A DNA stretch of 64,000 nt from Kondoa subrosea (Eukaryota). Below the pieces are notes generated by a model, which was given only the letters and a program-made list of their open reading frames with translations, searched no databases and was not told the DNA's origin. The stretch's first letter is position 1. Each line of letters starts with the position of its first letter. The position numbers and the translations under genes are program-made. The stretch lies in the NCBI GenBank assembly GCA_039545335.1, contig BCIN01000001.1:1857129-1921128 (forward strand), written 5' to 3'. Below, piece by piece: positions 7,579 through 59,999 of this stretch.

Positions 7579-10500
7579 TTACGCAGGACCGCTCTTTCTC
7601 TTCTTTTTCTTCTTCTTGGGTTCATCTTTTGTTTCCTTTCGGCTACTAGGCGCTTGCGCTTCTTCGGCCTTGCGCTTTGATGGGACACTAACAACGGTTG
7701 AGTTGCCAGGCTTCAATGTTGCGATGCGAGCATCTGCATCTTCCCAAGCGGCGTCCTCAGATTCGATTGCAAATCTATGGAAGCCAGGGCGTTTCAGTCA
7801 GATTACTATTAGAAGCATCAGATGACGCGCCTTACCTCTCTACGCCTAAAGAGTCTATCGCTTGTCTCTGCTGTTCTTTCAATTGATCGGCTACTACTTC
7901 TCCCTCTTTGCTCAGCTCTTCTTCAAGCGTTTCCGTAATGGCTGATCGCGACGCAAGCGGATTCTGAGCGGAAACATGACCATTGGTCGTCGATTCTTCT
8001 ACAATCTGAGCAGAGATATCGCTTTTCCGCACTTCTTCGACAGCGTTGACCATCTTTCGCATTGACTTGACGAAAAGGGCTAGAAGCTGACTGACAGGCA
8101 GATTAAGTTCTGTTTCGACAGCTTCGATCGGCTTCCTTTGTAGACCGAGAGCTAATAGAACAGCAGATTGAATAGCAGATAAATTTGTCACGGCTGGTAA
8201 TTGCTTGTTGAAGTACATTGAAGCCAAAAGCGGAAGCAGATCTAATACCGCGTGATAATCCAGCATATTGTTGGCGTACGAGTGCAGTCGCTTCATATCG
8301 AAAGGGCTGAAGGCTTTGCGAAGATCCGTTGTAGGATCTTTGCAGATCAAATGAGCAGTTGCCCGCCGCAGTCAAGAAATGCACACACCAGATGTTCTGC
8401 TAAGCGGTCCAGCTTCTATCTTGCACGCCTCTAGGACACTCAAAGATGTTACAGCTGCAAAATCTCTAAATTTGTATGACAGTAAGGAGATGAAACGTCG
8501 TCGGAAGTCTGTATTGCTCGCCATTAGTAATAAAAGGGTACAGTAACAGCTTTCTCACCCTCAGAGAAAGCCGTGAGCCATCCTGCAGTCTCTTCTTGTG
8601 TGGACGATAGCCCGCGCACCATTACACACGTATGCTCGCCGGTAAGGTCGTTTTCAGTCTGTCGAATGTAAAGCGGAACATAGCCCGCTCGCTTCCAGAA
8701 CTTGAACAACTGAGGAGTCAATCCGTACGAGACGCCTAGATAGTCCAACGCTTCCGGCTGCCGTTCTGCTAAGCGATGCAATAGAGGCGGCATTGTTGCT
8801 GCATCTCGACCTTTGATTGTTTCTGTATGAATATCGGCAGACTGTAGACTGATTAGCATGATGTCATTGTCGGTGAAGCGAGACTGACAGCATCCACTCG
8901 ACTGGCTTGTTCGAAGGTCTCGCTCTGATCATTCGTCTTCTGCTCGTTCAAGTTAAGCAATTGACCAGAGTAGAAAGCATCCAGAGCCTCAAGCGATCTT
9001 GATCCATAGCCCATCTGAAGCTAGATCAGCGCGGATGGCGGTAATCGAGAGTGCAACAAACTTTAGCATAATCTGGATGTACAGCTATTCTGACCACTCT
9101 AGCACCGGATAACCCAGCAAATTCATCATCTTGGAACTGTAAGACAGAGAGTTGGTAAATGAGCCCGCTATAGCGCTAATCAACATCATGTCTTACCTGC
9201 TGAGCAACAGTCCAAGGTATCAAATCACCGCTAGCTTTGATCCCTCTACTCAAGCTATTCAAAACACTTTGTTTGCTGATCTTTCCTTCCAAAGCGACTT
9301 GCATGACCACCAAAGGATCCGGTAGCGAATGATCCCCTTCTTTTAACGGCGGTAGGAGAACGAACAAGGCGTGTCCAGGTGCATCGGACATGAGTTGAAG
9401 ATCGTTAGGTGAGTTCTTGTAATGTGAAGCAACATAAAGTGCCATCATTCTTTGCAAAAATAGCTCAGAAGCAGGATGGAAAGAAAAGAGTGTATCTCGG
9501 TCGACGTAGTACAATTCACACTGCGAAGGATGAGGACATCCAGCTGTAGAGAAATTTTGCGAAGTGATTGTTGCATCGAGACACAGAAGGGAGTTGAGCC
9601 ATTTCTCAATCGAATCCGAATTACCATATCGAATCGGTTGCTCGAGCTTGATTTCACGGAAAGAACGAGAGATGGAAGCATTGCCGCGAGCTGCAGCTTT
9701 CGATGTATCTTTCTTCTCTGCCTTGTTAGCAGCGAGCGAAGGGTTGGCTGATTCTCGTAGTTGCTGGATCAGCTTCAGAGACAATGACCGACCAGTACCT
9801 TCGTAGCCGTTTACAGTAGATGCCATGAAGACAAGGTAAGGACCGAGAAGAGCTCGAACAAGCGGTAGAGGTATTGCTGCAGCTTCATCGATAACAACTA
9901 ATTCAGCTTGACCAAGAACATGAGCATCTTGAGGTTGAATATACTGTCAGCATGGCAAAAACACTTGAGCACATAAGCGAACAATCTACTTCCAGTTACT
10001 GACCTGAATAGTCTGCCTGTGATCTCTAAAGATATTGATGCGTACAACTGAACCTTTCCATTCCGGGTTACTACTCTGCACAACATCATAATCCAGATGT
10101 TCTTCATATCCAAGTTTGTCGAAACCTTTCAGCACGAATTCGAACAAAGTCTTGAGATTTTCAGGCGAGGGTGAAGTGACAAAGATATTGGAGTAAGAAT
10201 GCGCAACAGCCAAAGCTATTGATAGACCTAGTGCAGCAGATTTACCTCTTCCTCTTGCGGCCGTAAGAGCTACAGTGGACGAAAGAGTCTTGGCTGCAAT
10301 AGCATCGGTGAAAGTTAAGATCGCTTTAGCTTGGTCGATTGTGCTGGCTTCTTTCACTACTTCGCCAACTGGCTTCACACTTTCTAGACTTGCTTTCAGC
10401 TCCACTAGCTCTTGTATTTGTCGCTGCTGTGCCGCAGTGGAAGATTGCTTGTCTATAGGTCGAATATCTTTTGCTTGCGAAATAGGTAGAACGTTCAATT

Positions 10501-11226
10501 CGTCATCGAGAACAAGACAATTTGAGCAAGAGCCGAGAGATAGAATGAAACGCTCGTTGAATCGTGCTATTGGGTTTGAGGTAGCTGATTCTGTTCGATA
10601 TCGAGAATGTACATCCTGTAGATTGAAACACTTTTTTAAGAACATACAAAAATGTAGCTGAGCGTGAGTGAGCCTACCATAGACATCGTATATAATTGTT
10701 TCAGACTGGTCATGCTCTGCAACAAAAGCACAACAATTCCCCCTCCGGAAACCGTTTCGATTGTTCTCGCAAGCAAATTGGGCGTCAGCGCTTCAAAGTC
10801 TTGTAAGACCAGCATGCCGAATGTTTGACCCAAGATGTTCTCTGAATCTTTGTAGTAGGTATAGCGAATATCCGTTACTCCAACGAAAAGCTCAAAAGGG
10901 TCCATATCTCCTTCATCCCTGATCCCTCGCTTAACATCTCTCTTGACTTTCGCTTCCCTCTTCTTCCTGTTGGAAGTGAAACCTAGTTCTTTCTTATAGC
11001 ACCACAAGACATTTGGTCTGGAAGCGGCTTTCTTGCTTGTGGAAGGTGCAGAAGGTGCATCCATTCGAGCTTGGGAAAGCAAATAGTGCAAATTCACAAT
11101 CTGACGCTGTTGCTGCTGTGCATTACCGATCAAGACAAAGAGAGATCTGTGATTGTTGATGACTGAATTTCCTATCAAGTGCTGAATGCGAGAGTCTAGA
11201 GGCTTTCTCTTCTTGTCTGAAGACAT
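7579..11226 (-). CDS. KRE33: RNA cytidine acetyltransferase Kre33/NAT10
   Basis: VLWCYKKELGFTS, ILGQTFGMLVLQDFEALTPNLLARTIETV, LTAARGRGKSAALG, IDEAAAIPLP, STVNGYEGTGRSLS, SHYKNSPNDLQ, RIAVHPDY; basic C-terminal tail. Confidence 0.98.
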
Positions 11227-21799: not shown

Positions 21800-24700
21800 T
21801 CAGCGCTTTAGTGGGGTAGTAGGACGAAGAGGTGGTTTGACTGGCTGGTTTGCACTTTGACTATACATGTTGACCAGGTGCGAGACTTTCAGGGAGCGTT
21901 CGCTGAAGTTGCTGATGCCTGAGACGAATTTTGGTTTGGCAGATAAGTCGGGTTCGCTGAGTTTAGGTTCGCGATTGACTTGCTGAAGTTTCGCTGAAGG
22001 TTTCGGTGGTGTAGGAGGAATGACATCCATTGTAGGTTGAGGTACTTCGACTGTTGGGGTAGCTATCGCTTCCTGCGTTTCTTGACTGGGTTTAGGTTCT
22101 TCTTCTTCTTCGATCGGGTTTGGTCGCTCATGCGTAGTCAGAGAAGGTGGAGGACCTGGAAAGTCTTCTTCACCGACAACTCTTGATCCTCTCCATACTT
22201 CACCGCCGCCTTCCGAACCATCCATTGATGGCCTTTGATCATAAGGCAGACTTGCTGTTTCCACAGAATGGACGTCATTGATAGTAGTAACGTCAGACGA
22301 TGACCCATTTTCTTCCTGATAGTAAGGTATAGCTGTGGGTAGAGAGTTTTCGGTAGCAGTTCTTAAGCGAATTGTAGGTCTTTGTGGACTATCTGGAGAT
22401 CTGGGAGGCGGTATTCGTGGACTGGCAGGTCGTATCGATCTTTGTGACTGAGCTCGAACCATTACGTCCAACCAAGAATCGTCTTTACTCATAACGCTCA
22501 TGCGAGTATCGGTAGGAGAAGGTTGAGGTGAATCGATGGTAGAGTTATTGACCGAAGCTGTATCGTACCGGAATGAAGAAGATTGCATGCCACTCTGATC
22601 TGACATGCGCCGAGCATTCCTAAAATTGAAACGTGATTTCAGCGGGCTTTTGGCTTGTGAACTAATGGTAGCTTCGCCAATACCAGGCGCTCGGACGAGA
22701 GGAGATGAAGAGGAAGGATGTTCTTGAATAGACGCATACGTGGGCTTGTAGTGAGAACCACTTTGATCAGTCAGGCGTTTACTATTGACAGAAGTTGCGC
22801 GACTGGGAGCAGCACTGCTAACTGGCGTAGCTCCAAGATTAAGCTCATTTGACGCCAGAGACATTATCTTCGTGTCGCCGTCGTAATTGGGTTCAAAAAC
22901 ATTGGTGTTGACGTGGGTAGGTGGAACAGGTGAACCCCGAGGTGAAGTTCGTTGGGAAACAACATTATAGGACCTCGGAGAGCTTTGAGAAACAAGAGGT
23001 GAGCTGATAGGTGAACCAACAGGTTTCATTGTCGGCTTGCGCTTGACATTCTTTGAGAACAGGGTGCGTTTCCGCTTCATCTGATAATTACCACGATCAG
23101 ATCTGCTCGAAAAAGTCTCAATAGCCGACTAACTTTGCCCTCAAGCAGTTCTAGCCTATACTCTTGCGGAACAGTCTCCTCAATCAGATACCATCGACTC
23201 TCTGATCTGCCATCTCCCTGCACAACATCGCCTTCGTTCATTTTGAGCGGTCTTGCTTTCCATTGAACTAGGACCCAGTTTGATTCCTGTCAGCAGCATG
23301 TCAATTGCCGACTCAGATTGCACTGACGAGCCAAAAACATACTTTGATTTCTTCTCGTGCCCAACCAGAAGAAACGAGCGTATCGCTCCAAGCTTGGAAG
23401 AAAAGCTCGTCCACAAGGCAAGATGGACTTTCATGCGGTGTGATGTCGAAAGGAAAATCAGGCAATTCCTTTTCCATCTTTTTCAGTTTGGCATGAACAA
23501 TCTTCTTTTCTTCTGGCAACTTGTTGACCGACTCAGCCAAAAGTGAATCAAACGATAAATCAGTGTCGACATAAGTTTCTCTTCCTCCGAATCCTACTTC
23601 ATTGAATTGAGTCCAGTCGAGCGTTTCGTGCTTCTGTCTTCTGTTTGTGCGTTCACTTTCTCGAAGATCGAATTTTAACTTCTCTGGTGCTGCTGGAGCG
23701 AAGCCCGATTGCATGAAAGCTGCCGGAGAAATTAGCCTGTCCAAGCACAAGCCGTGTCTATGACTTACAAGCCCAATCTTTATCAGAAGTACTTCTGAAT
23801 TTCCTCAAATCATCGTCTTCTTCCCCTTCATCTCGGATATTGAGTAGATGTCGGTAGAACGGAGTGAAAATGGGCTGCGAGTTATTGAGGGTTGATCCAG
23901 ACATTCTTGCATCCGAAGCTCGCATCAGGGGGAAAAGCGAAGACCAAACCTTTGATCTTGGTACTTCCCATGAACCTGCCGTCTTGATGAGATCAGGTGA
24001 ATAAAAGCGACAATTGCGAGATATTCGAGCAACTTGAGCCGTTTTGCAATGTGCGGAAGGTTTGCTGAGATTGGAAGGTAAATCTTTAGGATAGTTTTGA
24101 ATGAAGTATTCTAGTTTGGTAGGTAAATGCATCCCACTCGAAGCTTTTTGATTCCTGATGTAGGCTAGAATGAGATGCTCGGTAGCGTTTGTGATTTTGA
24201 CGAAAGCTGTATAAGTCGGCTCAAAAGGTTGATCATCTACTAGGCCAAAGATGAAGGAGCCGAAGATGGCTGCTAGTTTGTGGGGAGTGCAACCGTTCTT
24301 CGTTGTGTATGCAATGGCAGAGGTCAGAAGACTAAGGAGGGTTGTAAGCAGACTCGCGACTGAGGAAGGAAGTCTATGGATGAAATGTGTACTGATGAAG
24401 CGAAAGTTTGCGAGATCTGCTTGCTGCGTCTCGAAGTTCCGCCATTGCAGGTAGACATCGAATTGCAAGAATCCATGCGATCCATTTGGCAGACGCACTC
24501 GACCCAAAGCCCACTTCATGAAAGCGACCAGATCATGTGGTTGAGCGAATTGGATATCACGCTGCCATGCTGCTGGATTGTAAAGGTAATTGCGGATCAG
24601 CGAGGCCGTAGCGTCTGCGCTGATATCCAGTGCCGTCGTAGAGAAAAGCATTGGAGATTCGAGTCCTCTTTCTTTGATCTGCTGTCCAACTTGCTCTACG

Positions 24701-25110
24701 ATGCTTTGAACCTGCACCGTGCTCAATTCGCGCTGGAATTCGATGTTCCAGTATCCATATGCTAATTGTAGCCTTTGTCAAAGTGTGAGAGAAGGCATGG
24801 AACAGCATCTTTGTATGCTTACTCTTCAGCTGAGAGCACCGATGCTCTGCGTCAGCCTATCCTCTGTCTAGGACTTCTGAAGCTTCGACTAACCTTGAGT
24901 GTTTGCAGTATCAAGGGAGATTGTGCTGCTGTGCCCAGCATAAGCAGTAGGAGCTGGAGCACTCGTCACTCTCCGACCAAGCTCATCAGGCCTGCTAAGA
25001 GGTAAACTATTGCTTTTGGCTCGATTTCCATTGGCATTGGAAGTCGTGCTTGCTGGAGTCGAGGCAGTCAGAGGATTCTTGTCTTTCTTTCTCCCAAAGA
25101 GCGATTGCAT
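21800..25110 (-). CDS. Msb1/Mug8 (DUF1708) RhoGAP-like domain protein with long disordered C-terminus
   Basis: QIKERGLESPMLFS, PHDLVAFMKWALGR, NGCTPHKLAAIFGSFIFGL, ATEHLILAYIR; W..F...GF motifs; S/P-rich tail. Confidence 0.72.
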
Positions 25111-27096: not shown

Positions 27097-27422
27097 CCAC
27101 CTGTTCCCCGCCTGATCACCCTTCGAATCGCTGTGATGGTTCGAGGAACAAACAGGAATTGTTCAATATTGCTTGCATCTGCCGACTGCTGGTCGTTACA
27201 TGCAGGCAGGAAGCTTGCACAACCTTAATCATGCCTCTTGGTGATAAATTACTTTTAATCGTGATAAATTACAATCATGCGAGACGGTGCCCTCGGCCGT
27301 TGTAATTGTGATGCGATCAGCATCTCTGCCTGCTTCTCTGTCATCGACTACCATCTAGTATATATCTCTCGTGAGTTGCGCAGTCCCCAATCTCACAAAG
27401 CTGACATATTGGAGAAAAGCAT

Positions 27423-28202
27423 ATGTCGACTCAGGTTGTCTTAGGAGGGACCGGAGCAACTGGCACTGCAGTCATCAGATCTCTACTCGCGAAGAAGGAC
27501 AACAGGATGAAAATCTATGTCCGATCAAAGGACAAGCTGCTCAACCTTCTGCCTCAAGCTGAAAACGATGCTCGAGTGAAGCTCATTGAAGGCTCTTTCA
27601 ACGATTCCAAAACAGTAGTCGAATGTCTACAAGACGCAGACACCATCTTCGCTTGCATCGCTTCCAATAACAGTCAACCCAATCTCACCCCAGCACAAGA
27701 CACCGCAGCATCCATCATTTCTGCTCTTCGTACGATCCGCGAAGCCTCTTCAAATTACCATCCCCCCACAGTTATCATGCTCTCTTCAGCAAGCGTTAAC
27801 GACAACATGCCCAAACCGAAAGATTCTATCGCGTACAAGATTCTCTATCGAGCACTTCGATACTGCTACACCGATTTGATAGAAGCGGAAGCTCTTTTTC
27901 GAAAAGCTGATGATCTGTTGAAGCTCATCATCGCTTCCGCACCTGCAATCATGCCCGGTGAAAGTGTTTGCGGCTATCGGCTGTCGTTGAATGAAGCTGG
28001 AACAGTCTGTTCGTATGGTGATTTGGGTGCCGCGATGGTGGAGATGGAAGAGAGGAAAGGAGAGTTCCTAGGCAAAGGTGTGGGCGTCATCACTTCTGGA
28101 GGAGTCAAGCAGGATTGGTTGCCCAACATCAAGCATCTCTTGAGGGGTTTCCTCGTTTCGTTCGTCCCAATTTGGCTGTGGAATTGGTGGAACAATGAGT
28201 AA
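27423..28202 (+). CDS. Intronless NAD(P)-binding oxidoreductase, AflX/OrdB-like
   Basis: VLGGTGATG Rossmann motif, YVRSKDKL, CL.DAD.IF.CIASNNSQP....AQD, IMLSSAS, YTDLIEAE, SYGDLGAAMVE, amphipathic C-terminus. Confidence 0.8.
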   Translation: MSTQVVLGGTGATGTAVIRSLLAKKDNRMKIYVRSKDKLLNLLPQAENDARVKLIEGSFNDSKTVVECLQDADTIFACIASNNSQPNLTPAQDTAASIISALRTIREASSNYHPPTVIMLSSASVNDNMPKPKDSIAYKILYRALRYCYTDLIEAEALFRKADDLLKLIIASAPAIMPGESVCGYRLSLNEAGTVCSYGDLGAAMVEMEERKGEFLGKGVGVITSGGVKQDWLPNIKHLLRGFLVSFVPIWLWNWWNNE

Positions 28203-28352
28203 CATGCTTGTAGCAAACCTTGCTGTAGTACATTCTTAAGCTTATGTGATGAAAGACGCGAAGTGTCATGAAATTTGTGACTTGCGCCGAAACCATCATC
28301 CAGCTTGACCTGTACAGCAGCAAGCTCAATTCAAAAGCTCCATGAGGCGCAC

Positions 28353-30403
28353 ATGGATCCTCATGTCGTTCTCGTAGTGGATGGAGCTCTCAAGAACCGC
28401 TTTGGTCTGGCTCAGACCTATCTCGCTCAAGTGACGAAGTTAGTCAGCTCGATACCTTTGATCTTGCACTGAATAGATATGCATCAGTCTGCTCCAGACT
28501 ACCTATGCGAATCAGAAAGTTGGTCTGACGGTACTACTGCCATATAGAAGCTGACAAGCAGTGCAGATCAACGCTACAACCATAGTGTTTGGAGCTCATT
28601 CACCTATTGTTCAATGTCCGTATCGTGTCGTCCCTTCGCGTGGCTTGCTCGAAAACAATCTCTTCCTGGCTAATCTCTTTCAACCTGGTGTCAAATCTGT
28701 ATTGTCGAGTCTCGCTCTGGGAACAGATGTAGCAATTCTGGACGCTTTGATCGAAGCTGTCGAAGTATGTTTCCATGACTGAGACCAGATCTTTGTCTTC
28801 GGCTTATCTTTGGCCTCAGATACTCGAAGTAGAAGCGGCCGAATCTCAAGCCAGACATGTCTTGCTCCTGACCAGCTCGGATATACCTCTACTATTGGAT
28901 AACAGCGATTTGATCAACGCTGGCTGCAGCTCTGGCTGTAATATCTCCCAGAAATACGACAGACTGAGCTTTCCTGAACTTGCTGAATCATTACAACGAG
29001 ATGCTGTCAATTTCTCGCTCATTACTTTCAACTATCTACCTCAAAGCGAGAAATTCTATTTGCTGGCTTCTGGTCGAGCTGCTGCACCCGCTTCACCTAT
29101 TATTCCTCTCAATCAGGAACATGCTATCTTGCTATCCGGTTTCTCGGGTGACGACAAGAACCGTCTGAAACGATCAAATGAAGCCATTTACTCTCCTCCA
29201 GCTATGCAACAGCAAGAAGAAAACAATAAACGTCAACGTACAGATTACGATCCAGCTTTGTTAGCACAGATGCAAGCTATGGCTTCTCAAGCAGCTCGAT
29301 CTTCTGCTGCTGGAACTAATCAACAATCTCGTCCGGTAGGACAGCAGGAATCTTTGCAAAGATTATCACCCGAACAACAAATTATCAGTTTGCAAACGTC
29401 GAAAGCGGAAAGGATCAAAGGTGCTCAAAAGATGATCGCCATGATGCAGGAACAATTGAGAGTAGGTAAAGTCACGGAAGAAGCTTGCAAGCAGAAAGTA
29501 GACGAGTTCAAAAAGATGATTGCAGCTCAGTAGGTGTTTGTCTCTATTGATTTTTGAGGTAACTGACTTCAACCCGTTTGTAGAGTATATCAGATCGATG
29601 CAGAAATAGTAGAAGCTCGAAATCGTCTACAAGCTCAAGCTGGAGGACAACAGCAGCCTTTGACTAGTCCAGTCATTCCAGAAACGCCTATTGTGAACCC
29701 TCAATTCTGGTCAGGAAACGTGACTATGACTCTAGGGGATACGAAAACGTATCAATCCAGGTGTTACGCTGCGCCTGTCCAGGGTCCAAAACTGCCACCT
29801 GATCTGTCGACAGCGGATTGGCCAGCGGTTTTGAATCTAGAGTGAGTGTCTATCCTATTTCTTCCTCTACCTCTTTAACTAACTCAATGGCCCAATGAAA
29901 CAGTCATCTTATAGTCGTCGATATGCCAAGCCTACAAGCTCACGTTCAAAGCAATGCCATACCCATGATCAACATCAATCCCATTCCAAGACAATTGGTC
30001 ATTCAACAGCAGCAACAGCAAGGTCTACCACCTGATTTGACAGTGGTGCAGAAGAATGAGGGTCTCTATGCTGCTTTCAGTTCTACTATCAGCAAGCGCA
30101 AAGGGGTAAGTCTCATCAAGCAAATATGTTTGAATTAAACCTAGGGTCTGATCCTCTTTCGATTAGGTATCATGGATCACGATAGGCCCACCTACAGACA
30201 AGACTGGATTGATTGTACTTTCTGGCAAGGGAAGACTGATCGCCTTGATGTTTCAAGGATCGAATCCTTTACCCGCTCATGTGCTTCGACCCAAGCCGCA
30301 AGGCAACCCAGGCCAGTCTGATCAGCAGCAGCAGCAGCAGCAGCAGCAAACCGACGCTAATGGCCTCATGCAGCAACTGCAATTCAATCAGCAACAGCAA
30401 TAG
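28353..30403 (+). CDS. MED25: Putative Mediator subunit Med25/PFT1 homolog (vWA + Q-rich linker + ACID-like domain)
   Basis: HVVLVVDG, TIVFG, ILDALIEAVE, RHVLLLTSS, ELAESLQRDAVNFSLIT..LP, EHAILLSG; C-terminal FWSGNV...DLSTADWPAVLNL...GRLIALMFQG; polyQ tracts. Confidence 0.7.
30323..30349 (+). repeat. (CAG)8CAA coding microsatellite (polyQ)
   Basis: Read directly; in the last exon of the Med25-like gene. Confidence 0.9.
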
Positions 30404-30599: not shown

Positions 30600-31648
30600 C
30601 ATAGCGCAACATCTGGGTCCATTCGTTGATGTACATTTCGTACATGTCGCATAGGTCGTTCAGCAGCGCTGAAACCATGATAGATCAGTACATTGACCTC
30701 TTCGCAACATACACACAGAGACGGACTTCATCTCGGTATCATCACCGTCTTTCGCTGGTTCCTCATCATCATCCGATTCCGATCTCTTTCGTCTCGCAGT
30801 AGAATCTCGACTGTTCATCATGGGGTCTTGAGCAATCTGCAAACTTGCTTCATGAATATGCTGGTAGGCTTCAATCTGATGCTGGAAATTTTGATTAGGT
30901 GAAATGCAGAACCGACGAGCTTGAACGTATTGGAAAGCGTCTTCGTGAGACATTCGATGCGTTGTCATCACATAGGCGGTACTATACACATATAACATAA
31001 GCCTGACGTGCGTGTAATGGGTTTTGTAATCAGACATACACAATAGCTGGTGAACGACTGATTCCATCGCCGCAATGCACTAAAATTCGACCACCTTGAC
31101 TTAACGCTGTATCGATGAATTCTTTTGCTCTGTAGGTCACAGTTCTGACTTCAGCAACTATTGCGCAGAGTCAATCTCAAACCCACTCTGGAAAGATGCG
31201 AATCAGATTCTGATCCTGCGCATCCCTGATTTCCAAGACTTTGTAAATGAAAGCTTCAGGAAAGCGTGGTTTGACCAAATGTCTGTAGGTCACCACGATC
31301 GTCTGAGCTCAGATAACCAGCATTAGCAGAGAAATGATGACCTACGCTTCTCGTGCATCCGAGATACAAAGTACATGAGTCAAATTCAGACTACGCATGT
31401 ATTCCAAGCTTCGACTGGACTGATAAGGACCAATTAAGAGGTTGGGTAAGATCTCTTGAGCTTCTCTACGCATCTCATACCTCCAGTCTGTGCAATATTT
31501 GGCACAACATTTGACTTAGACATCGGCTGCTGATCTGGATTTATGCAAGGCTGGTCGGCATACCTGGAGGTAAGACTTGATTTGCTCCCATAGAGCTAGA
31601 GTAGTGGACTTGTTGCATAGCATTCTGACGAACTGCACTTGCTGTCAT
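30600..31648 (-). CDS. STYX: STYX-family dual-specificity phosphatase with intact HCX5R loop (3' end approximate)
   Basis: WRYEMRREAQEILPNLLIGPY, KPRFP, QNLIRIFP, LVHCGDGISRS, DAFQYVQARRFCISPN. Confidence 0.88.
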
Positions 31649-33455: not shown

Positions 33456-35475
33456 TCATGTCCCAAATAGCCAAAAGTCGACAGGCAGAATCTTTCTCAT
33501 CACTTTGATATGATCCTCCTCACCATGCTCTTGCCATTTCGTTAGCTTCCGCGCTGTCGCGTCTCTCAGTATGAAGTCTTGCGCATGACTCGATCGAGCA
33601 GGCAAGATAATCTCATTCGCAAGCAGTTCGTCAAACGTTCGCTGCCTTCCTCCTGTCCCAAGATAATCTGCTTCCACTGGTGTCCGAAGCTTGATCTCAT
33701 TTGTGTTCGAGCAGAAGATAACCTGTGTGCGCAATATCGAATCTGTGTCCGAAAGCAGCGAAGGTCGCAACTTACCATGTTGCGATGACCAGTCTGATCC
33801 TCTGCGTCTGTTACTTCCGCAAATGCACGACATTGCGTAAAAGACTCCAATAATGTAGCAAGGATGCTGCTTCCAGCTTCATCATCTATTAGACCAGCAA
33901 AGTTCTGCTTCATAGCAATAAGCGATCGGTCGAGACTATTAAAGAGCACTCGCAATTGCTACAACCCCATCAGGTTTCAGGGCACTTTTAACATCTGACC
34001 AACATTCCTTGGTAAAGAGTAAGGCAGGAACAGAACCACCAGTGAAGACATCTAGATGTATCCATCAGATGACAGCTCTGGACTCAGGAAATGTGCTGAC
34101 CATGTACGATATAGTCGTACGTGCCCAAATCTGGCTTGCGCAATACAACGCGAGCATCCTCCAAGAAGGCACCTCCTCTGGGTTCCGGGACGGCAAAGTA
34201 CTGGCGCCCAAATTCGTAGACTGCAGGATCCAATTCGCATATGGTCACATTGATGCCATGTAGTTGTAGAGCCCGAGCAGATATCCCGGCACCGAGACCA
34301 ATGACAAGCCCATTCGGGTTGACAGAAGCAGGTCTTTCAACGAACCGGATCGCTTCCTGTCTATAAGCACTTTTCAAGCACCACACTACCTAGGTGATGT
34401 GTCAAACTTACGCATAAAACGTAGAGTAGATTGACTCTGCACTGTTGAGGGACTCTTGTTCCAAAGCCCATTGAGACCTTTCCGATAATTGCAATACATT
34501 CTCCACTCCAACTTCATGCCTTTTCATTACTTCTCCCCTTGCATGACCAATCCAGAAACCACCAAGCAGAGAATGATCTGCTCTTAATACCCGAGCCCAT
34601 TGAGCCTCGCCTATTTTCCATTCGACAACCGATATCAATCCACTTATACTCTCTTTCTGCGCCAGCAAACGTGGTTCTGGATCAATCGTTGGCCATGGTA
34701 TAGAAGAAGAGATTATTGTTCGATGGTATACTGTGGAAGTGAGGAGTAGAAGGAAGAAAGGTTGGAGACCGAAATTGGCAAAGTTACTTGTCGTCTGAAG
34801 AGTGTTGTCAAAACTTGGTAGGACTAGACCAGGCAATGAGCCAAGTAGCATTATGATGCCAACATTGCGATACTGAAACTCGATAAGCTTGACTCGTGAA
34901 AGCAAACGGTTACATCTGCCTACTAAGAGTGAAGATAGTATATTCCCATGGATGAAAGCCGTGCCAAATCTGAGTGCCCGTATGGATAGGAGGAGCATAG
35001 AGAAGCGTATGAGCTGTCTTCGCTTTTGCTGAGTGGCCTGTGGAAACAAGGCAAATATCGTCTGCAAAGTGCTTGCACCAAGGAAGATGAGTGGAACAGT
35101 TGCAGCTATTCTTGCGCAATAAGCTTGCTGAAGAGGTCCAGACGAGATTATTGCTGTTGCCAGAGTCTCCTTCATCGACCATATAGCTACAGTGCTCAAA
35201 CCAGCAATCAGCAGGAAATAGCGCGAGTGAGGCAAGGTTGCTTGGAGTATGATGCCAGCCAGTAGTACAATAGCTTGAACTTCATCTACCATGAAGGCGG
35301 GCCTGATCACAGAGCCGAAAACAGGTCGAAGCACATTCGGAACCGCATTTCGCAAAACACAGCAAAGCAGGATATGACAGGGAGCTGATGCTACTAGCAG
35401 GGTATCAGTGAGGGTATTCGAAGACTGCACAGGTATAGAAGATGCAGGCTTCGCAGCCTTGCGTCGTTGCTTCAT
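33456..35475 (-). CDS. Membrane-anchored spermidine-synthase-like SAM-dependent transferase
   Basis: N-terminal TM segments; LRADHSLLGG, ESIYSTF..QEAIR, LVIGLGAG, ELDPAVY, YDYIVH|DVFTGGSVP. Confidence 0.82.
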
Positions 35476-35555
35476 GTTACGGCTTATTACGTAATTGTCA
35501 GTTGTCTACTTGGGGAATCAGTCTTACAAATGAGTCTGCATACATACATCCTGAC

Positions 35556-49116: not shown

Positions 49117-51899
49117 ATGTCCACCAGGATGAGCCGTTCTTTTTCGAACAATTCGAACAGCTCTTCCAGCTCTGGTGAAATGCTTGCCAATGAGCTCCTG
49201 GCACCCACTGGCTCGTCTAAAGATATCGATACTCTGCGCAAGTTGGCCAAAACAGCGCGGAACAAGCGCAAACATTCTGCTGTGGATACACCTATAGCCG
49301 AAGAAGTTCCAGCAAAGAAGCCTTCGCTCGAAGAAGGTGAACTGGAAGACGGTGAGATAGGCGACGACGACGACGTGCCATCGCAGCCAGTCGCAAGCAC
49401 CTCGACCAATATTCCGACAACTCGAAATTCCACTTCGGCTTCACCCTACCCTCTACCTTCTAGACCAAGCATATCTATTCCTCCTCCAATACTCAGCCAA
49501 TCGTCAAAGGGAGGGCCATATATGAATCCCGCTTCATCAACTTTCATACGTATGCCCTTCCTTCCTTGCGTTCTCTGATCTGGCTCAACTTGTTCATCAC
49601 AGCTCGGTTGCGCGAGAAAGATAAGGAAGACTGCAAATTCCTCATCTCCGAATTGTCGTCTTGGGGTGTCAGCGCAGAATATTTAGTCGCATATGGAATT
49701 AGCAAAGACCTTCTGGCCATTTGTCTTGCGGAACTCGACCTCACCATCCCTCCTCACCTGGTGCATCTTGTACCAGCAAATGCTCATGCGACGAACGGCA
49801 GCTCATCCCGCCGCTACAAGTCTTCAGCGCGATCTACTCTTCCGCCTGCAACTGTCCGAGAAATCGCGCCTCGCGCCTCTTCCGATACCTCATCAGCTGT
49901 TCTACCTCCGCCTCCAGACCAGTCCGCAGAAGATCTGGCCAATATAGAGGCCAAGAGACGGGCTCTGCTCATAGCACGCAAACAAGCTATCCAGCAGAAG
50001 AAGGCCGACACAGCTAAGAGTCTTCATTCGGAGATCGACAATCTCTTTGCACTGTCTCAAGCAGAACTTGCATCAGATCAAGATTCGGGTTCATCGGCAT
50101 CGATCAATGAAGAAGTCGACATGATTCTTGATTCCCCCGGCATTGCATCTGCCTCAAGTGAGCAAATTCCTCCCCTCTTTACACCAGCGGCAATGCCCAG
50201 CGTCCCTCAAACTGGTCGACGGCCAAAAGCAAGCGATTTTGAAGCCGAACCAACCCATGCCCTTCCTCAACATCCTCGCCGCAATGGTGTCTTTGTACCT
50301 CCTCAGATGCGTAATCACAACTCTCTCATCATTGAAGTCTCGGATGTAGAAGATAACGACAAAGATGATGAAGAAGAAAGCGATTCCAATGACGGTCGGC
50401 GGAATGACGGTTCTGATCAGCAAGCTTCTCACGCTATGTCCAATGTGCGACCACCATACAATCGTACCTCTTCTGCTCCTGCAGCTCAAGCACCTAATTC
50501 CAAAGCCAAGGCACTATCTATCAAGGAACAAGAGATTAAGAAGATGATGGATATGATCAAGCGCATGGAAGAGAAGAAGAGAGCGAAGACTAGCGATAGT
50601 CGACAAATGACGCCTGTAGCGACTCCTAATACTGCTGTCACGCCTCTACCTTCTCCACCGATTTTGTCAGTACCGCTAAAGGAAGAATCACCAGCTCCTC
50701 AATCTCTAGAAGAACGCACTCCAACGAGTGATTCGATTGGGAAAGAGCAGCTTGAAGAAGCGAAAGCTCAAGTCGACCAATCAGTCACTAAGGCAGCCGA
50801 ATTGGTACCTCAACCAGATGCGTTGGATTCAGTAAAGTCAGAATCTGCTTCGTCACCTGCATCAATTCCAGCACCGAAAGTTGAAGAATTAGAAGACTAT
50901 GTGGAAGATGTTGAAATGGAAGATGCGCAAAGTCTGAACGTGGACAAGTCTCCTGCGGCATCCGACACACCTCAAGATCCTCAAGTGGAAACTAACGCAA
51001 CGCCCCATTCAGCTATCGGTACATGATGCCCTGCTCGGAAATTTGTATCGAGCTCACCATTGTCGTCCTTAGAATCAGCCGCATCAGAAGCTCTGCTGTC
51101 AATGTCTCAACCGGTTTCAGAAGCCGTCGAGTCCGCTCCTGATGAGGTGAAAGAGATCCCTGCGACTGCTTCAGCATCGTCGGACAGTAACAAGATTCAG
51201 GTACAGTCAAGTTGCTCTTATTCATCTACAGTCTCAGCAATCCTTGCGCACAGGTGAATGGATCTAGCGCTACTCTAAAAGCGGCTATAGTGCCTGTAAG
51301 ATAACTTTGCTTGATGCGGAAGACGCGAGCCGGTCCTTGGGCGTACTGACTCGCAATTTCGCGCTTCTCAAGACTCGATTTGTCTCCTATCGATCGCCTC
51401 TCGGTTTATGGGCTCGTCAACCACAAATATCAGCATCCACGACTTCAACTGGTTCTTCTACTCTAGTACGACCTACGCCAGCCGGCTTACAAAGCTGGAT
51501 GTCACGTAAAACAGGCAGAGATGTCAACGCGCAACTGTGTCGCTTCGAAATTGACGGCACTTGCAATGACAAGGACTGTCCGTCTATGCGTGAGTATTTC
51601 TTCTTCTGCTAGGAGAAAGCTGACTGCTGCGGAACTCGCCTGCAGATGCTCGGGACTTTCAAGCATCTGGTGGGTCGCGGGCTCCGCTCGGTCAGTGTTT
51701 GTGTTTCTCGTACTAAATATAAAACCCCGCAGAGGAAGAACTGATGGACTACTTTATTTCAATATACAATATAACCGGCTCAGCCAAAACCGATCTATTC
51801 AGGCAAGGTTTCTCACTGATTTTTAAGCGCTATAAGCAGCCACTCGAAGACCTTCCGAGTTTGCTCGAAACTGTTCATGATTTCATTTCGCAGCCTTAG
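49117..51899 (+). CDS. Red1/ZFC3H1-like zinc-finger protein (MTREC/PAXT scaffold-like)
   Basis: ELEDGEI N-terminal motif; LIIEVSD.E acidic motif; KEQEIKKMMDMI coiled coil; FVSYRSPL; LCRFEIDGTCNDKDCPSM|H C3H finger. Confidence 0.75.
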
Positions 51900-52277: not shown

Positions 52278-55200
52278 CTATTCCTCACCTTCTTCGTCTT
52301 CGTCCTCTTGGGCTGTCGGCTGAGATTCTTCTTCTCGTTTGACCAGAAGATTGAATAGTGATGCGACGGAAGATGGTTTCTCGTTATCTTCAAGATCCAT
52401 AGGTACTGTCTCTGAACCGGGTTGTAGGCGGAGACCTTGCTCATTGGCCAGATGTAAAAGACAGATGAAACAGAAACTGGTCGAAATTTCTTCCAGCTTC
52501 TCTTTTGGATATGTTTTTCGTAATCCAGAGATCACGTTGGTGAAAGTCTTGGGCTGGTGCTCCGTTTCTTCGGTCAGAGAAGACTGTACCTGAATGTTAA
52601 AAGAGTTCCAGAGTTACACGAAGCACTCACAAGATCGAGCTCTTTCCATATATTATCCTTGAGTCGCTTCACATCGACACGCTTCGCCTTTTTGGCATAT
52701 TGAACGTAGTCCGGTCTGGCTCGTTTCGCAGATTGACCTTGGGTAGCCGCAAGAACTTCATCTTCCGTTTGACCTGGTTGAGCTGGCTCGCCCAGTCCAG
52801 GTCCTCCGATATCCATGTCAATCTCGTCTTCTTGGAAATCTGGCATGTCTCCTTCATCATCTTGGAAGAACTGAGTATCGAACGGAATTGCAGGACCGTC
52901 ATCGTCGTCAACTCCGTCGTCGTTTCGATGTTGCGCAGCTGCTGCTTCAGCCCAGTATCGCTCGTCAACCTCTTCATCGAGACCTATGCGGTCGCATAAG
53001 ACAGTGTTTCGCTCAAAGTATTAATGCCTACCGTGCTGATTCTTATTGTTACTGAAGACTCTCGGTCCACGACTTCGCATGTTGATCTGTGAAAGAATCG
53101 AATAACATCAGTCTAGGTACCAGCACAACGCGATCAGAGTATTCACCATAGCTTTCGGTTTCATGAACAGCCTGAGCAGAACCGCACTCGAGAAATGCAT
53201 ATCATCTGGTAAAGTATAGTTGTTCTTGCGATCTTCAGCTGTCCGTTTGATCAGAGTGCTAGTCGTACTAGTCGCAAAGAGTTCTTTGGTTGTAGTCGTG
53301 CGTTCTGATTCGAAATCAATACTAAAAGGTTGCTTTTCTTTCCGTTTCGCTTTGGGGGCAGCAGTATCATCTGTTAGTCAAATACAAGGATCCCATCAAA
53401 TCTTTGAACATCGCCTTGTAACATGACTGACCTTTCTTAGCCGCAGGTCTTCGCATTTTCCAATGTTCCGGTCCAGCCCAATTCTTGGTGAAGGCGCTAT
53501 CAAAGTAATCAAACACCCCACCACCATCTTGACCACCTTCAGTATTCATAACCATGACCAATTCTCTTTCATTTGGACCTCGACTCGGGTTATAAGGTTC
53601 TACAACACCTCTTGCAGGTCCAAATTCTCCTGCTTGAGCTTGTTCATCGCCACTGCCATCACCTCCGCCTTCATCGAAGAAATCAGCACCTCCATCGAAG
53701 TCCATCGGTCCTCCGTTATCGCCATCGTCGAAGAAATCTTGGCCTCCTCCAGCAGGAGGAGCATCTTCCATGTTGACATCTTCTTGACCATCATTGGATT
53801 CTTCAGTATGGTTAAAGAAGGATAAATCCAAAGCAGCGTTAGTAGTCGCAGAAAACTTGAAATCAGCCATGGAAGGACAAATCGCTTTGTTGTCCAAAAG
53901 GGACAAATCCGGTAAGAACTCTTTAAGTAACCTCGACACATCAATCTTTTTCAATCCTTCTTCTTCATTCGAATCATCTTCTTCCTCTTCTTCTTCATCA
54001 TCGTCTTCTATACCTTTCGACAACCTTGTATCCGAGGCATCGAAGACGACTCTCATATTTCGATCGCATCCTAAGTGATTCATGAGGATACCAGAAGCAC
54101 CACCTTCGTCGAAATCAGCTGAAGTCTTCTTAAAGAGTGGATCAACTTTGTATTCCATATCTGGGTTTTTGGCTTTGATCTTATCGAAATGATCTACTAA
54201 AGTCTTGGTCTGAGTAGGTCCCTGCATTTTTATATTACAGTCAGAAGATGTCAGGAAAGAGGAGAGAAGAAGGGAAACTAACGCGTTTCTTTTTTGCTGG
54301 ACCTCCGGCACCTTCATCTCCAGATTGATCGGATCCTTGATCTTCATCTTGATCATTCGAATCTACCGCGTATACGTCAGTTAGTTGCAGACATATATGT
54401 ACTCGCGATGCTGACTTGAGTCCTCAGCTAAACCAGACAATAATTTGCCCGTCTCCGTAGCAACACTATCAACTCTTGAAGTCCAAATCTTGACGCAGCC
54501 ATCTAAAGTGCAAGAGGCTTTCTGAAAATTGATAGAATTGTCTGTATCCCCATTCCGTAAGAGCGACATATCGTGAAAATAATCAATGAGAGCGAAAGTC
54601 CAAGTATTTGTAGCATTGATTTTCTATTCCCAATAGTCAGCACAGGGTAGGCAACAGAAGGGAAGCCGTAAAAACATACATTATCGGTTGCCATCTTCAT
54701 CCAATCTTCGTAATTTGCATTCATGACTTCTTTACTTACTGGAGCTGCGGGACTGTTTGGAGCTTGATCACCTAATAAACCACCCATTCCACCATTAATG
54801 CCACCCAATGAACTCCTTCCACCATTTGTACGATGTAAGCCAGCTATTCTAGATCCACCGCTCGTCACTCTAGGGGTCAAAGGTGGATTACCAGCAGCAG
54901 GGGCAGAAGTATTATCTTCATTCGATTGCTCTTGTCTCAATTTGGACAAGTTATTGAAAGATTGTCTCCGTAACAAATCTTGTTCAGTAGGTCTAGAAGA
55001 CAATCTTCGTTTGGCAGCAGTACCATTAGGTGATGCTTGAGGTGAAATGAAAGCTGCTTTCTTTTTCTTGTTAGGAGGAGTAGGTTGACTGGATGAATTG
55101 TCTAACTCTGAACCTGAAGCAGATATATCGAAATCACGTCTCAGGGGAGCGCGTCGCTTAGTATTATTGAGACCTTTCTTGACTGTAGTAGAGGCACCTG

Positions 55201-55315
55201 AATTCAATTCCTGCGTTGCTTGGGTGGCTTCTTCTTCGGATGCTGAGGACTCTGCAGAAGAGGAAGATGAGTTGGATATACGAGCAGCCTTCTTCGCTTT
55301 AGCTTTGGGACCCAT
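52278..55315 (-). CDS. BRN1: Condensin kleisin subunit Brn1/Cnd2/CAP-H
   Basis: YEDWMKMATDN|KINATNTWTFALIDYF, NFQKASCTLDGCVKIWTSRVDS, DPLFKKTSADFDEGGA, NWAGPEHWK, VDVKRLK, FICLLHLANE. Confidence 0.96.
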
Positions 55316-55521
55316 CTTGGCCGTTCGAGGTCGAGCACTTTGTTTTTATTTTCGCTCTTCTTTCTTCTTCTTCTACTTCGTGCCGCCGCTTGATCTGCCT
55401 ATTTGACGGTTCTCTCTCTCTTTCGGCTGTCATCTACAGCTTGTAGGGCTGAAGCACTCTGCTCTGATCGCTCTTTCACCCGTGCTTTGGTGATTGTTTA
55501 CTTTTCGATCTCCAAGGCATC

Positions 55522-58500
55522 ATGTCTTCCTGGATGCCTTTAGGAGCAGGACCTACAGCTGAATCTGATACTTCTTTGGAAATCTCTCGTTTGAATCGAA
55601 TTATAAGAGAACAGAATATCTTACAAGACACAACTTCTGCAGAACAAATCAAACTGAACGATTCTTTACATCAAGTGAAACTGTTACTCAAAGAAGCTCA
55701 AGGTAGAGCTAGTAGTGAGTTGGATGCTAGAAATGCTATGGAAAGGGAGCTGGAAAGCAAATCGAAAGCGGAGAAGAGCTGGACTGCTATGAAGGTCAAT
55801 TATGAGAACACTATATTGGCTCAAGAGGATAAGATGCGTGCTTTGGAAAGGCAGGCAAAACAGGCAGAGAAAGGTACAGTCCATCTTCCACTCTTGCAGT
55901 GTATTAAGGTTACTCACGTACTAGGTAGAACTGAATGGCTATTCTGAAAGTCGAGCCGGAGAAGAAGACAAGCTTCGATCTGACAAGGATGCTCTGCAAA
56001 AGAAAGTATCTCTTTTGCAATCTTCCCTCAATCAAGCCCAACATGAAATCAATCTTTACAAAGACGTTCAATCCAAGGTAACCTTTTTATCCTTCTTCAT
56101 TTGACCAGGCCTGATGATACAATGCTAGCCAAAAGCTGATAAGAGAAGACGTTCTTCTTCTTTTTCAGCAGTATCAACTATTCCCTCTTCTTCCTCTGAA
56201 GCCACTAATTCTGATCTGGAAAAAGAAACCGAGAAGCTCCGGCTGAAATTAGCAAACATGGAAAAAGAACTCATTGTGGCTCAGAACACAGTCTTTGCAG
56301 CTCAAAAGAAAGCAGAACGAGAGTCTTTAGAATGTGCTAGGCGGATAGAGCAGATGGAAGAAAGTGTTGAAGAGATCAAATGGCTTAGAAAAGAAGATGA
56401 GCGGGAATTGGAGGAGCTGAGAAAGGGGAAAGATGGATTACTGGTATTGGAAAAAGAAAAGGTCAGATTAGAAGAAGAGAAATTGGATTTGCTCAAGAAA
56501 GTCGATTTGATCGAACCTCTACAAAAGAAGACAGCTGAGCAAGAGTCAACTATTGAAGAACTCACTTCTTCTTTGGCTGAAGTGGAATCGCAACTGTCTT
56601 CTTCAGCTATCACTTCCTCTCGCTTGACCGAAGCGGAAGATCGTTGTCTGGAACTTCAAGCAGCAAGAGATGCTTTACAAGGCTCTGTGCAAGAGCTCGA
56701 AAAACGGTTGGAAGAAGCGGAACGTGCTTCCGAAGCATCTACCACAGCTCAGCGATCGCAATGTGAAGATCTCCAGACCAAACTCGACGCTTCTTCGGCT
56801 CAAGCAGAGGAGCTCTCGCTCGAGACTCAGCGCTTGACACTTGTTCTGTCAGAGGTGGAAGCTTCCCTCGCGTCTGCTCAATCGGAGTCTCAAGAATATC
56901 AAGCCAAAGTCTCTTCCCTTCAAACGGAAAACGAAGAACTTCTAGCAGATGTTCAATCTAGAACCACCGAGACGGAAGAAGCTACATCCAATATAACCGC
57001 CCTCCAAGCAAGATGTGTAGAACTTCAATCTCGCCTCCAATCTTCGGAATCGCAAAATGAAGATTTGATCTTAGCCTTACAACGCAAAACCGCCGCATTG
57101 ATCGAAACTGAAGCCGAACAAGCTTCCTTCTTGTCATTATTGCAAACCAAATTGGACGCAGCGGAAGAAGAAATGCAAAACCTGGAGATGAAGTTTACTA
57201 TTTCTCAAGAAGCTGCTGACTCTTTTAAAGCGGAACGAGATGCTTTACTTGGCGCTTTGGCGGCTCATGAGAAGCAGAAGCTAGATACAGAAGGCCTTGA
57301 GAAGAAGCTTGTTGAGAGTAGGCAAGATGTTCAGAATGCTGAGCAACGTTGTGCGGTAGTGGAAGAGGAATTCTCAGTAAGTCTCTCGTTATCCTTTCCT
57401 TCTCATATGTCAACTTATCCATTTGTAGATGGTGGCAATAGAAAGAGACGAACTTCAGAACCGGATTGAAGACCTCAAGCGAGAGATCGAAAACATGCAG
57501 GCTACCTCTGACCCAACTCCGACGCCATCAGAGCATTTCGATAATCGCCAAGCTGCTCTTCTTGTTGCGCGTCTACGATCAGAACGCAACAACCTCAATA
57601 CTCAGCTTCGATACGTACAAGCTGAATATGCAGTTGCCTCACAAGCGCAAGAAGAAGAGTTGTCTCGCTTGCAATCTGCCTTCTCTCAGGAAAGAACTCA
57701 ACTTGAGATTGCTGTGGAATCGAGCAGGAAAGATTTAGCGGAAGCGATGGAACAACTTGCTCAACTACAAGAAAGATCTCATACTCCTGAAGATTCGCCT
57801 GAAGAGGAAGAACCTCGAACACCTGCTACTTATACTGCTTCATTCCCTGGACCAAGCTGTTCTCCGCGTCGTTCATTCCTTTCCGAAAGGCCTCCTCACC
57901 CTGTCTCGACCTTTTCTAGCGAATCGATTCTACCTACTCCTGCTTTACATAGTGATACGCCAGATATAGAGAACCTCTTCTTCAGATCTGATTCTTTGTG
58001 TCTCGAGGGCGACTCAACGCGAATTGATATGGATTCTTCTGTCTTCTTCGGCTCTTTCAACACTCCTGAGAAAAGACAAGTGGAAGCGAAAGCTTTGCAG
58101 AAGAGAAAAGAGGAAGAGATTCAAGCTGCTAATGTACGCACAATTCAGCTTCTTGAGCAACAGAAGGCAGAACAAATTCAACTTTCGCATCATCTTCAAG
58201 TTCAGATCCACGAGTTGCAAGAATTGCTGGCTGAAGAGAAGCAGTTGCATGAAGATACCAACACAGCTTTGACGGAACTCGAGATGCATCTATGCACCTT
58301 GAAGCACAAGTTATCCGAAGCTAAAGATGAAGTCTCAACACGAACAGAAGAGCATAACGCAGCCTTGTTAGCCCGACAAAACTCTTTCAATCAGGATTTG
58401 TCTCGACAAGCTGATATTGTGCGCGAGAGAGAAGAGCAGATCCAGCGTATGCAGTCAAAGGCAAATAGTCAAGAGGAAGAACTGATTGATCTTCGACAAT

Positions 58501-59999
58501 CGGTTGATGATTTGCGGATTGAAGTGGCAGAGAAAGAAAGCCAGCTTCAGCAAACAGTCGAGGAACTACATCTCGTAGAATCCCGACACAGTCAAGATGC
58601 TGCTCGCTTGGGTCGACAAGAAGAGCAGCTCGAAGATCAACAGAGGGCGAAAGAAATCGCTGAAGAGAGGTCGCAGTCTCTAGAAGCTCGTCTAGCGGAA
58701 GTTCTTCAAGAGCTCGGTCAATTGCAACTCAGCTCGGAGAGTGACAGCTCGGAACTGCGAGACGAAATCCAGCATCTTCGCTCTCAGCATCAAATAGCTC
58801 TTGAGGATCTCTCTGCTGCGCATCAGCACACTGTTGCAAGTATTTCAAGCCGCGCTGAGGCCGAAGACAAGCTTAAAGCGGGACAACTGGAAGACCTGCG
58901 GAAGGACAATGCTCGTCTGGCCAAAGAGATCTCTACTCTGCGCAATTTGATCTCGCAGAAGGAGGAAACAGCAGTCAGATTGGAAACTACGCTGAATTTG
59001 ACCAGGACTGAAGCTGAAAGTAAGTCGGCTTCTGATGCATTTATCCTGGCTCAACTCTTTGTACAGCCCTTGTCGCCGACTTCAATTTGTGCAGCGCTGA
59101 ACTTGAGAGAAGAGAACGAGAAGATGAACAGAGGTATGAAGCTTAAGCTGACTTCAGGCACTGTACTGAACTGCGCTTGCAGAGAGGAACAGATGATCGA
59201 ACAAGAATCAGCTATCGACAAGCTCAAAGAAGAGCGAGATGCTTTGTCAGCTCAGTACCGTCAAGCCCAAGAAGATCTACAGCAACATTCCACAAAGTCA
59301 AATGATCTGCAAGCCAGTCTGGCGGAAATGGAAGAGCGACTGCAAAGTAAAGAGGAAGAGATTGAAGAGACAGAAGATAGATGTATGTCATACGATTCCA
59401 CTGCAGTATGTATCGGTTGCTGACTACGACGTGAAGATTTGAGTTCGCTAAAGGACATCAAGAGACTACAATCAGCCAACGAGCGCTTACAAGTCCGCTG
59501 CGAATCTTTGCAATCGACTGTAGCAACACTAGAAGAATTACGAAGCAAACAGCAAGCTCAGACTCTGGCCCTGCAAGATGCTGCTACTTCGCCTCAACCT
59601 GTTCGCAATCTTCCACGCAAGCCTCTTTCTGGCCGTTCTCCCGTTCCTCCTCAAGCTCAAGTACCTCCGCAGCCAGTGCAAGACGTCCAGGTGCCTTCAA
59701 GTACTAAAAAACGAGGCCGACCCGAAGACCTTACTCCTTCCGTTGAGAATCTTCCACCTCGAGCTATTGCTATTATTCCAAGTCCACAAGCAACAAGATC
59801 CGTGACAGCTACTCCTCGAGCTCATGCAGCACCTCCTACCAGTTTGCGATCTCTTGGGTTAAAGAAACGGCCGATTCGATCTCCCCTAGCTTCGACCGAC
59901 AGAAACGCACAGATTCCATCACAAGAGGATGGGAAGCTTGCCAAGCCAGCAAAGTCTGCGCAACTGCTGGCGTCACTTGCAGCGATCCGAGGGAATTGA
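55522..59999 (+). CDS. Large coiled-coil protein of unknown function
   Basis: Several long E/Q/L/K-rich heptad exons joined by short introns; SP/TP-rich central and C-terminal segments; KKRGRP NLS-like motif. Confidence 0.8.

Follow-up and report, generated by a model that had tools for sequence, protein, structure and literature searches.

The question raised by this locus is whether a basidiomycete fungus, Kondoa subrosea, encodes Mediator subunit 25 (Med25), with a von Willebrand-A (vWA) domain at its N-terminus and an activator-binding domain of the ACID/PTOV type behind it. The candidate gene lies at 28353-30403 (+) of the window, by which we mean the whole stretch of 64,000 nucleotides that was analysed. 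An earlier note on this DNA proposed that the fungus keeps such a protein. Here, the gene model, the two putative domains and the search for relatives are considered in turn, together with the explanations that compete with a Med25 identity.

Gene structure

The proposed start is the first in-frame ATG past an upstream stop (28353, +), and the frame closes with a TAG stop at 30401-30403. When the exons were joined by their coordinates with a script, 1683 nt were obtained, i.e., 561 codons with one stop, which is terminal. The predicted gene consists of the following parts:

28353..30403, plus strand: whole gene, six exons and five introns; CDS of 1683 nt, 560 amino acids plus the TAG stop
28353..28430, plus strand: exon 1, residues 1-26, carries the first strand VVLVVDG; an alternative end at 28442 adds four residues
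28431..28566, plus strand: intron 1, 136 nt, GTGACG..CAG, CTGAC motif 12 nt from the acceptor
28567..28764, plus strand: exon 2, residues 27-92
28765..28819, plus strand: intron 2, 55 nt, GTATGT..CAG
28820..29529, plus strand: exon 3, residues 93-328 and 2 nt, latter half of the vWA-like domain with the greater part of the Q-rich/charged linker
29530..29583, plus strand: intron 3, 54 nt, GTAGGT..TAG, CTGAC motif
29584..29841, plus strand: exon 4, end of the linker, then the opening third of the C-terminal domain, which includes FWSGNV and ADWPAVLNL
29842..29903, plus strand: intron 4, 62 nt, GTGAGT..CAG, CTAAC motif
29904..30105, plus strand: exon 5, central portion of the C-terminal domain; a Q run lies within it
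30106..30166, plus strand: intron 5, 61 nt, GTAAGT..TAG, CTGAT motif
30167..30403, plus strand: exon 6, final third of the C-terminal domain, then a Pro-rich stretch, the Q-rich tail and the stop

GT..AG ends were found in all five introns, each with a CTNAY branch-point motif 12-21 nt before the acceptor. Given the GT/AG positions and the open frames, the frame stays open with a single set of junctions, apart from the alternative donor of intron 1. The donor chosen there, GTGACG (28431), is weak, and a second phase-0 donor, GTCAGC (28443), would add four residues to the protein. The best-consensus donor of this intron is GTTAGT (28439), yet it is out of frame. The exon-3 frame measures 260 codons from stop to stop, compared with 30 shuffles of the window in which the longest was 216 codons and the mean 169. 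The earlier note had spliced the gene by hand and claimed an intact protein, which is borne out by the 560 residues and the five canonical introns. The peptide motifs quoted in it were likewise all found in the spliced translation, in the same order. From these sequence signals, the predicted six-exon gene model at 28353-30403 (+) is confirmed.

An out-of-frame ATG is located 11 nt before the proposed start. It opens an 11-codon frame (28342-28377, +) that overlaps the start codon, which could mean either a small upstream ORF or a transcript that begins downstream of that ATG.

It is very improbable that the locus is non-functional, either as a pseudogene or as a chance assembly of open frames. 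The gene model is built on sequence signals, the donor of intron 1 is weak and the upstream ATG is out of frame, which would all be compatible with a dead locus. However, five introns that each have donor, branch-point and acceptor signals, a joined frame that is intact over 560 codons, and an exon-3 frame longer than in any of the shuffles speak against it.

Organization of the protein

In the N-terminal part of the spliced translation, the motifs HVVLVVDG (residues 4-11), TIVFG (31-35), ILDALIEAVE (83-92) and RHVLLLTSS (104-112) are followed by VNFSLITFNYLP (155-166) and HAILLSG (193-199). The C-terminal part carries FWSGNV (370-375), ADWPAVLNL (406-414) and GRLIALMFQG (504-513), and then a poly-Q run at 535-543. 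The fraction of hydrophobic residues is 0.39 in residues 1-200, 0.23 in the linker (201-368), 0.35 in residues 369-515 and 0.16 in the tail (516-560), and Q makes up 0.15 of the linker and 0.40 of the tail. This composition fits a hydrophobic domain, a polar Q-rich linker, a second hydrophobic domain and a Q-rich tail. Behind the N-terminal domain, the segments are:

29144..29701, plus strand: linker, residues 201-368, across intron 3; Q 15%, K+R 13%, hydrophobic 23%; KRQR at 229-232
29702..30265, plus strand: putative globular domain at the C-terminal side, 147 aa (residues 369-515), across introns 4 and 5, with limits taken from composition
30266..30400, plus strand: Q-rich tail, residues 516-560; Q 40%

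By segment composition and motif positions, the parts follow the order of Med25, i.e., vWA, disordered linker, second globular domain and disordered Q-rich end. In Arabidopsis, MED25 (PFT1) is built of a vWA domain, a linker, an ACID domain and then a Q-rich C-terminal region, and the parts of the protein described here follow the same order. Human MED25 carries an NR box at its C-terminus, a difference from the protein here, which ends in a poly-Q tail. According to the earlier note, the motifs themselves may resemble those of human Med25 and plant PFT1.

The N-terminal domain

The six exon translations were scanned one at a time against 24,736 Pfam families at E<=10, and exon 3 was the sole one of the six for which a match was listed. 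The N-terminal domain is split over exons 1-3, so it was scanned in pieces. The best Pfam match of the whole exon 3 was Med25_VWA (PF11265), with E=0.034 and 14.3 bits. For residues 1-115 of this exon, the same family gave E=0.0073 and 16.5 bits, which is under the curated cutoff of 21, and for residues 1-130 it gave E=0.01. The position of the match is:

28946..29143, plus strand: Pfam Med25_VWA match, exon-3 residues 43-108, equal to protein residues 135-200; profile positions 148-213 of 213

In both the whole and the trimmed exon 3, the alignment covers the C-terminal third of the profile up to its last position. The end of the profile falls on protein residue 200, which is also the end of the hydrophobic domain. 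Upstream of the match there are 134 residues for the 147 profile positions left unmatched, which is about the right number. Moreover, the match lies outside low-complexity sequence. The other Pfam matches of exon 3 had E=1.5 and 2.1 and were both within the linker, and the next match on the trimmed exon was YkcB_C (E=0.11), which is unrelated. Exons 1 and 2, scanned singly, had no Pfam match at E<=10.

An alpha/beta vWA-like N-terminal domain is also shared with Ssl1/TFIIH p44, Rpn10, Ku70/80 and INTS6, but their Pfam families were absent at E<=10 on all exons of this gene. More generally, no generic VWA, Ssl1, Ku, Sec23 or other vWA-type family was found at E<=10 on any exon piece, so that among the vWA families in Pfam at this threshold the exon pieces match Med25_VWA best. 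A better match to another vWA family such as Ku, Sec23 or Ssl1 was what the earlier note had named as evidence against its own reading. In addition, Ssl1 carries a zinc-finger cluster; the whole protein here contains only five cysteines and thus has no cluster like that of Ssl1. The one vWA family that was matched is the Pfam family built on the vWA domain of MED25, a likeness to human MED25, although the match is below the family cutoff.

As a control, 18 off-frame ORFs, each 54-118 aa long and located within 27.6-30.9 kb, were scanned as well. Any match at E<=10 was obtained for 4/18 of them, with a best E of 0.083 and with no Mediator family among the matches. The Med25_VWA family had been named before any scan, and therefore its score is more telling than the library-wide E-value suggests. 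Dividing E by the 24,736 models, a calculation of our own, gives about 3e-7 for the one pre-named model.

Structural and sequence comparison with the PDB was less informative. AlphaFold2 prediction for exon-3 residues 1-118, run with no alignment, had a mean pLDDT of 38.9, too low for use. A Foldseek search of this model against the PDB gave no match at E<=0.001 and 41 at E<=10, with vWA domains absent among the 41, which at such model quality is uninformative. Searching the PDB chain sequences with phmmer gave no match at E<=10 for exon 2 or exon 3. The Pfam result supports, below the curated threshold, that the N-terminal domain resembles Med25 weakly but specifically. Thus, the earlier claim that this domain is the vWA domain of Med25 stands in part: Med25_VWA is indeed the top family for exon 3, but its 16.5 bits do not reach the cutoff and only one third of the profile is aligned.

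Relatives and sequence divergence

With exon 3 as the query, no recognisable orthologue from related species was retrieved among the fungal proteomes in the collection. When longer proteins were searched by word index, exon 3 had no relative at E<=0.001, and the same kind of search with its vWA half found none at E<=10. These searches were scaled to 5.8 and 1.8 billion sequences, a size at which orthologues of 30-45 bits would stay hidden. A metagenome scan with exon 3 yielded 264 pattern matches, of which 0 were confirmed. The exact 8-residue patterns used there had little chance, because the gene is probably fast-evolving and the nearest named relatives are only about 76% identical even in NAT10. 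The ESM Atlas gave no usable match for exon 3.

A full phmmer search of exon 3 against 1.84 billion representatives returned a sole match, a tandem-repeat protein of 2155 aa that aligned in three stretches with 29% identity. It was rejected as spurious.

The collection itself was probed with a conserved neighbour. At 9176-10792 (-), two exons of the RNA cytidine acetyltransferase NAT10/Kre33 are present, with the best named relatives in Microbotryomycetes. Of 8000 proteins scored with the exon at 9176-9946 (-), 5905 reached E<=1e-30. The best named matches of this exon were from Microbotryum, Leucosporidium, Rhodotorula and Sporobolomyces, with 73-76% identity, and the identity to Rhizoctonia and other Agaricomycetes was about 67-73%. 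The nearest Atlas cluster of this exon is eukaryotic, and Basidiomycota is its commonest phylum, the phylum being known for 8/93 members. From the NAT10 results, the DNA is read as basidiomycete, probably of Pucciniomycotina, and as having no closely related sequenced species in the collection. Many fungal proteomes, including basidiomycete ones, were therefore within reach of the search, and exon 3 found no relatives among them, which argues for a fast-evolving protein. Accordingly, the Med25-like protein is read as a fast-evolving and very divergent copy, as far as sequence comparison can indicate.

The same results bear on a quite different explanation, in which the protein is unrelated to Mediator, the Med25_VWA match arises by chance or from a generic alpha/beta likeness, and the gene encodes some other Q-rich nuclear or cytoplasmic protein. 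We regard this as improbable. It would be consistent with a score under the Pfam gathering threshold, with the failure of the searches to retrieve a homologue of any kind, and with spurious Pfam matches of E about 5e-4 elsewhere in the window (TolA_bind_tri and GAS), which were taken as coiled-coil stretches. However, the match is to the one family named beforehand, and both the end of the profile that it covers and its position in the protein are the expected ones. It is free of low-complexity sequence, E was not under 0.08 for any off-frame control (18 ORFs), and no competing family was found. A Med25-type vWA protein is the reading that is followed below.

Med25 in other fungi

In the portions of the survey by Bourbon (2008, Nucleic Acids Res 36:3993; PMC2475620) used here, single likely Med25 equivalents are given for Rhizopus oryzae and Phycomyces, and candidate Med25 proteins, at PSI-BLAST E-values of 3e-34 to 7e-43, for four basidiomycetes. 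Two of these four are named, Phanerochaete chrysosporium and Coprinopsis cinerea, and the Med15 of all four is described as lacking the KIX domain (PMC2475620). According to the same portions, Med25 was absent from the ascomycetes examined, and it was concluded that Med25 joined Mediator before the divergence of fungi and animals (PMC2475620). As far as its description goes, the protein of K. subrosea is like these candidates, since it is the product of a non-ascomycete fungal gene with a putative N-terminal Med25-type vWA domain. It differs from them in that exon 3 finds no fungal relative at database-wide significance, as would be the case for a very divergent copy, and in its probable origin from Pucciniomycotina.

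Disorder values for fungal Med25 are tabulated by Nagulapalli et al. (2015; PMC4770211), who, in the parts of the paper considered, also mention Q-rich regions and C-terminal disorder in Med25. In the relevant text of MedProDB (2021; PMC8342855), it is stated that Med25 has "not been reported in fungi". This statement contradicts both Bourbon (2008) and the fungal Med25 values in Nagulapalli et al. (2015), in so far as these sources were drawn on. No experimental study of a fungal Med25 was found in the literature searched. The earlier claim that this fungus keeps an activator-binding Med25 thus needs to be narrowed. The vWA match is specific, though sub-threshold, whereas the novelty was overstated, as fungal candidates were published in 2008.

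The C-terminal domain

The C-terminal domain is split over exons 4-6, which are in different frames, and it was searched as pieces of 40-85 aa. Pfam gave no Med25/ACID family (PF11232) for any of these three exons, nor for the parts of exons 4 and 6 that had been trimmed to 50 aa and 40 aa. With phmmer against the PDB chain sequences, exon 4 and exon 5 as single pieces gave no match at E<=10, exon 6 gave five unrelated chains at chance level (best E=0.27), and no MED25 or PTOV1 chain was obtained with any of the three. Pieces of only 40-85 aa are unlikely to pass the HMMER filters with a distant match, so these null searches for ACID say little.

Size and position can be compared with the human protein. 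The human ACID domain comprises residues 394-543, i.e., 150 aa, and its third helix, to which the activator-contacting V534, I537 and R538 belong, is found close to the domain end, according to the pertinent part of the source (PMC7564715). Human MED25 (ARC92/ACID1) is like the present protein in that an N-terminal vWA domain and a long disordered linker precede a domain of about 150 aa (394-543, here 369-515), and unlike it in that the pieces searched here gave no ACID match. A further difference is found at the place of that activator-contacting helix, where the protein of K. subrosea has a Pro-rich segment. Five prolines occur among the 21 residues that follow the last putative strand (514-534). 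They sit where the third helix of human ACID lies, and hence an ACID domain in this protein, if it is one, would probably be without that helix.

On this analysis, it is plausible that the C-terminal residues 369-515 form an ACID-like domain, a reading that the searches with its pieces neither support nor refute. A more far-reaching proposal is that they form a true ACID-type barrel minus the third helix, which would be a main activator-docking site of the basidiomycete Mediator and would make up for the KIX domain that Med15 lacks there. We offer this only tentatively and consider it doubtful. If it is true, activator recruitment in basidiomycetes would be closer to that of animals and plants than to that of the model yeasts.

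An explanation that we consider unlikely is that the gene encodes a Med25-type vWA protein in which the rear domain is not an ACID/PTOV barrel. The vWA domain would still anchor the protein to Mediator, but the part joined to it would be partly disordered or have a lineage-specific fold. In favour of this, the vWA match is specific, and PF11232 is absent from exons 4-6 and from the trimmed pieces of exons 4 and 6. The PDB searches produced no MED25 or PTOV1 chain, a Pro-rich segment stands in place of the third ACID helix, and the Q run of exon 5 interrupts the domain, all of which would be compatible with a rear domain of another kind. On the other hand, searches with pieces of 40-85 aa are weak for distant matches, and both the size of about 147 aa and the position past a long linker fit ACID. 

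Neighbouring genes

An open frame of 265 codons at 27405-28202 (+) has NAD(P)-binding/NmrA-like Pfam matches (NAD_binding_10, E=7e-15) and ends only 150 nt before the start of the Med25-like gene. Downstream, at 30660-31079 (-), lies a piece of a convergent gene that matches the C-terminal part of DSPc, the catalytic domain of dual-specificity phosphatases (35.7 bits, cutoff 33.5, E=8.7e-9). Farther away, an Msb1/Mug8-RhoGAP-like gene is located at 23758-24777 (-) and condensin subunit 2 at 53367-55345 (-; Cnd2, E=3e-51). The large open frames at 21800-23128, 34408-35505, 49464-51026 and 56129-57469 had no Pfam family at E<=0.001, and the frame at 57429-59423 had only a weak Pfam match to GAS (E=0.00047).

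Proposed function and significance

We hypothesize that this basidiomycete gene codes for a fast-evolving orthologue of Mediator subunit 25, and we consider this probable, though well short of certain. The lineage fits, because candidate Med25 proteins have been published for basidiomycetes and the NAT10 neighbour is closest to Microbotryomycetes (75-76% identity). The order and sizes of the parts fit Med25 as well, since a C-terminal domain of about 147 aa, against 150 aa in human ACID, follows a long linker.

The mechanism proposed here is modelled on what is known of animal and plant Med25. Residues 1-200 would form a Med25-type vWA domain that anchors the protein to the Mediator tail. The linker of about 170 residues, predicted to be disordered and Q-rich/charged, would give the flexibility for the second domain to reach DNA-bound activators. 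This second globular domain of about 147 residues would most likely play the activator-docking role of the ACID/PTOV barrel, and it may bind acidic activation domains via the barrel surface. The Q-rich regions could add weak multivalent contacts, with the poly-Q tail closing the protein. What the analysis shows is the gene model, the composition with two domains and the specific, sub-threshold Med25_VWA match over the final third of the first one; how the C-terminal domain folds and acts, and the binding to Mediator and to activation domains, we infer.

A fungal Med25 is not new in itself, and the copy described here is a divergent addition, perhaps the first one looked at from its subphylum. 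The piecewise scans stay under the Pfam cutoff, and so automatic annotation could well call such a gene hypothetical. The gene illustrates how divergent Mediator subunits of this kind can be. To our knowledge, it is in ascomycetes that the fungal Mediator has been studied structurally and biochemically. If the protein is confirmed together with an activator-binding domain, it would provide a handle for the study of activator recruitment in basidiomycetes, and it would support the view put forward in 2008 that Med25 is older than the split of fungi and animals, with a later loss in ascomycetes.
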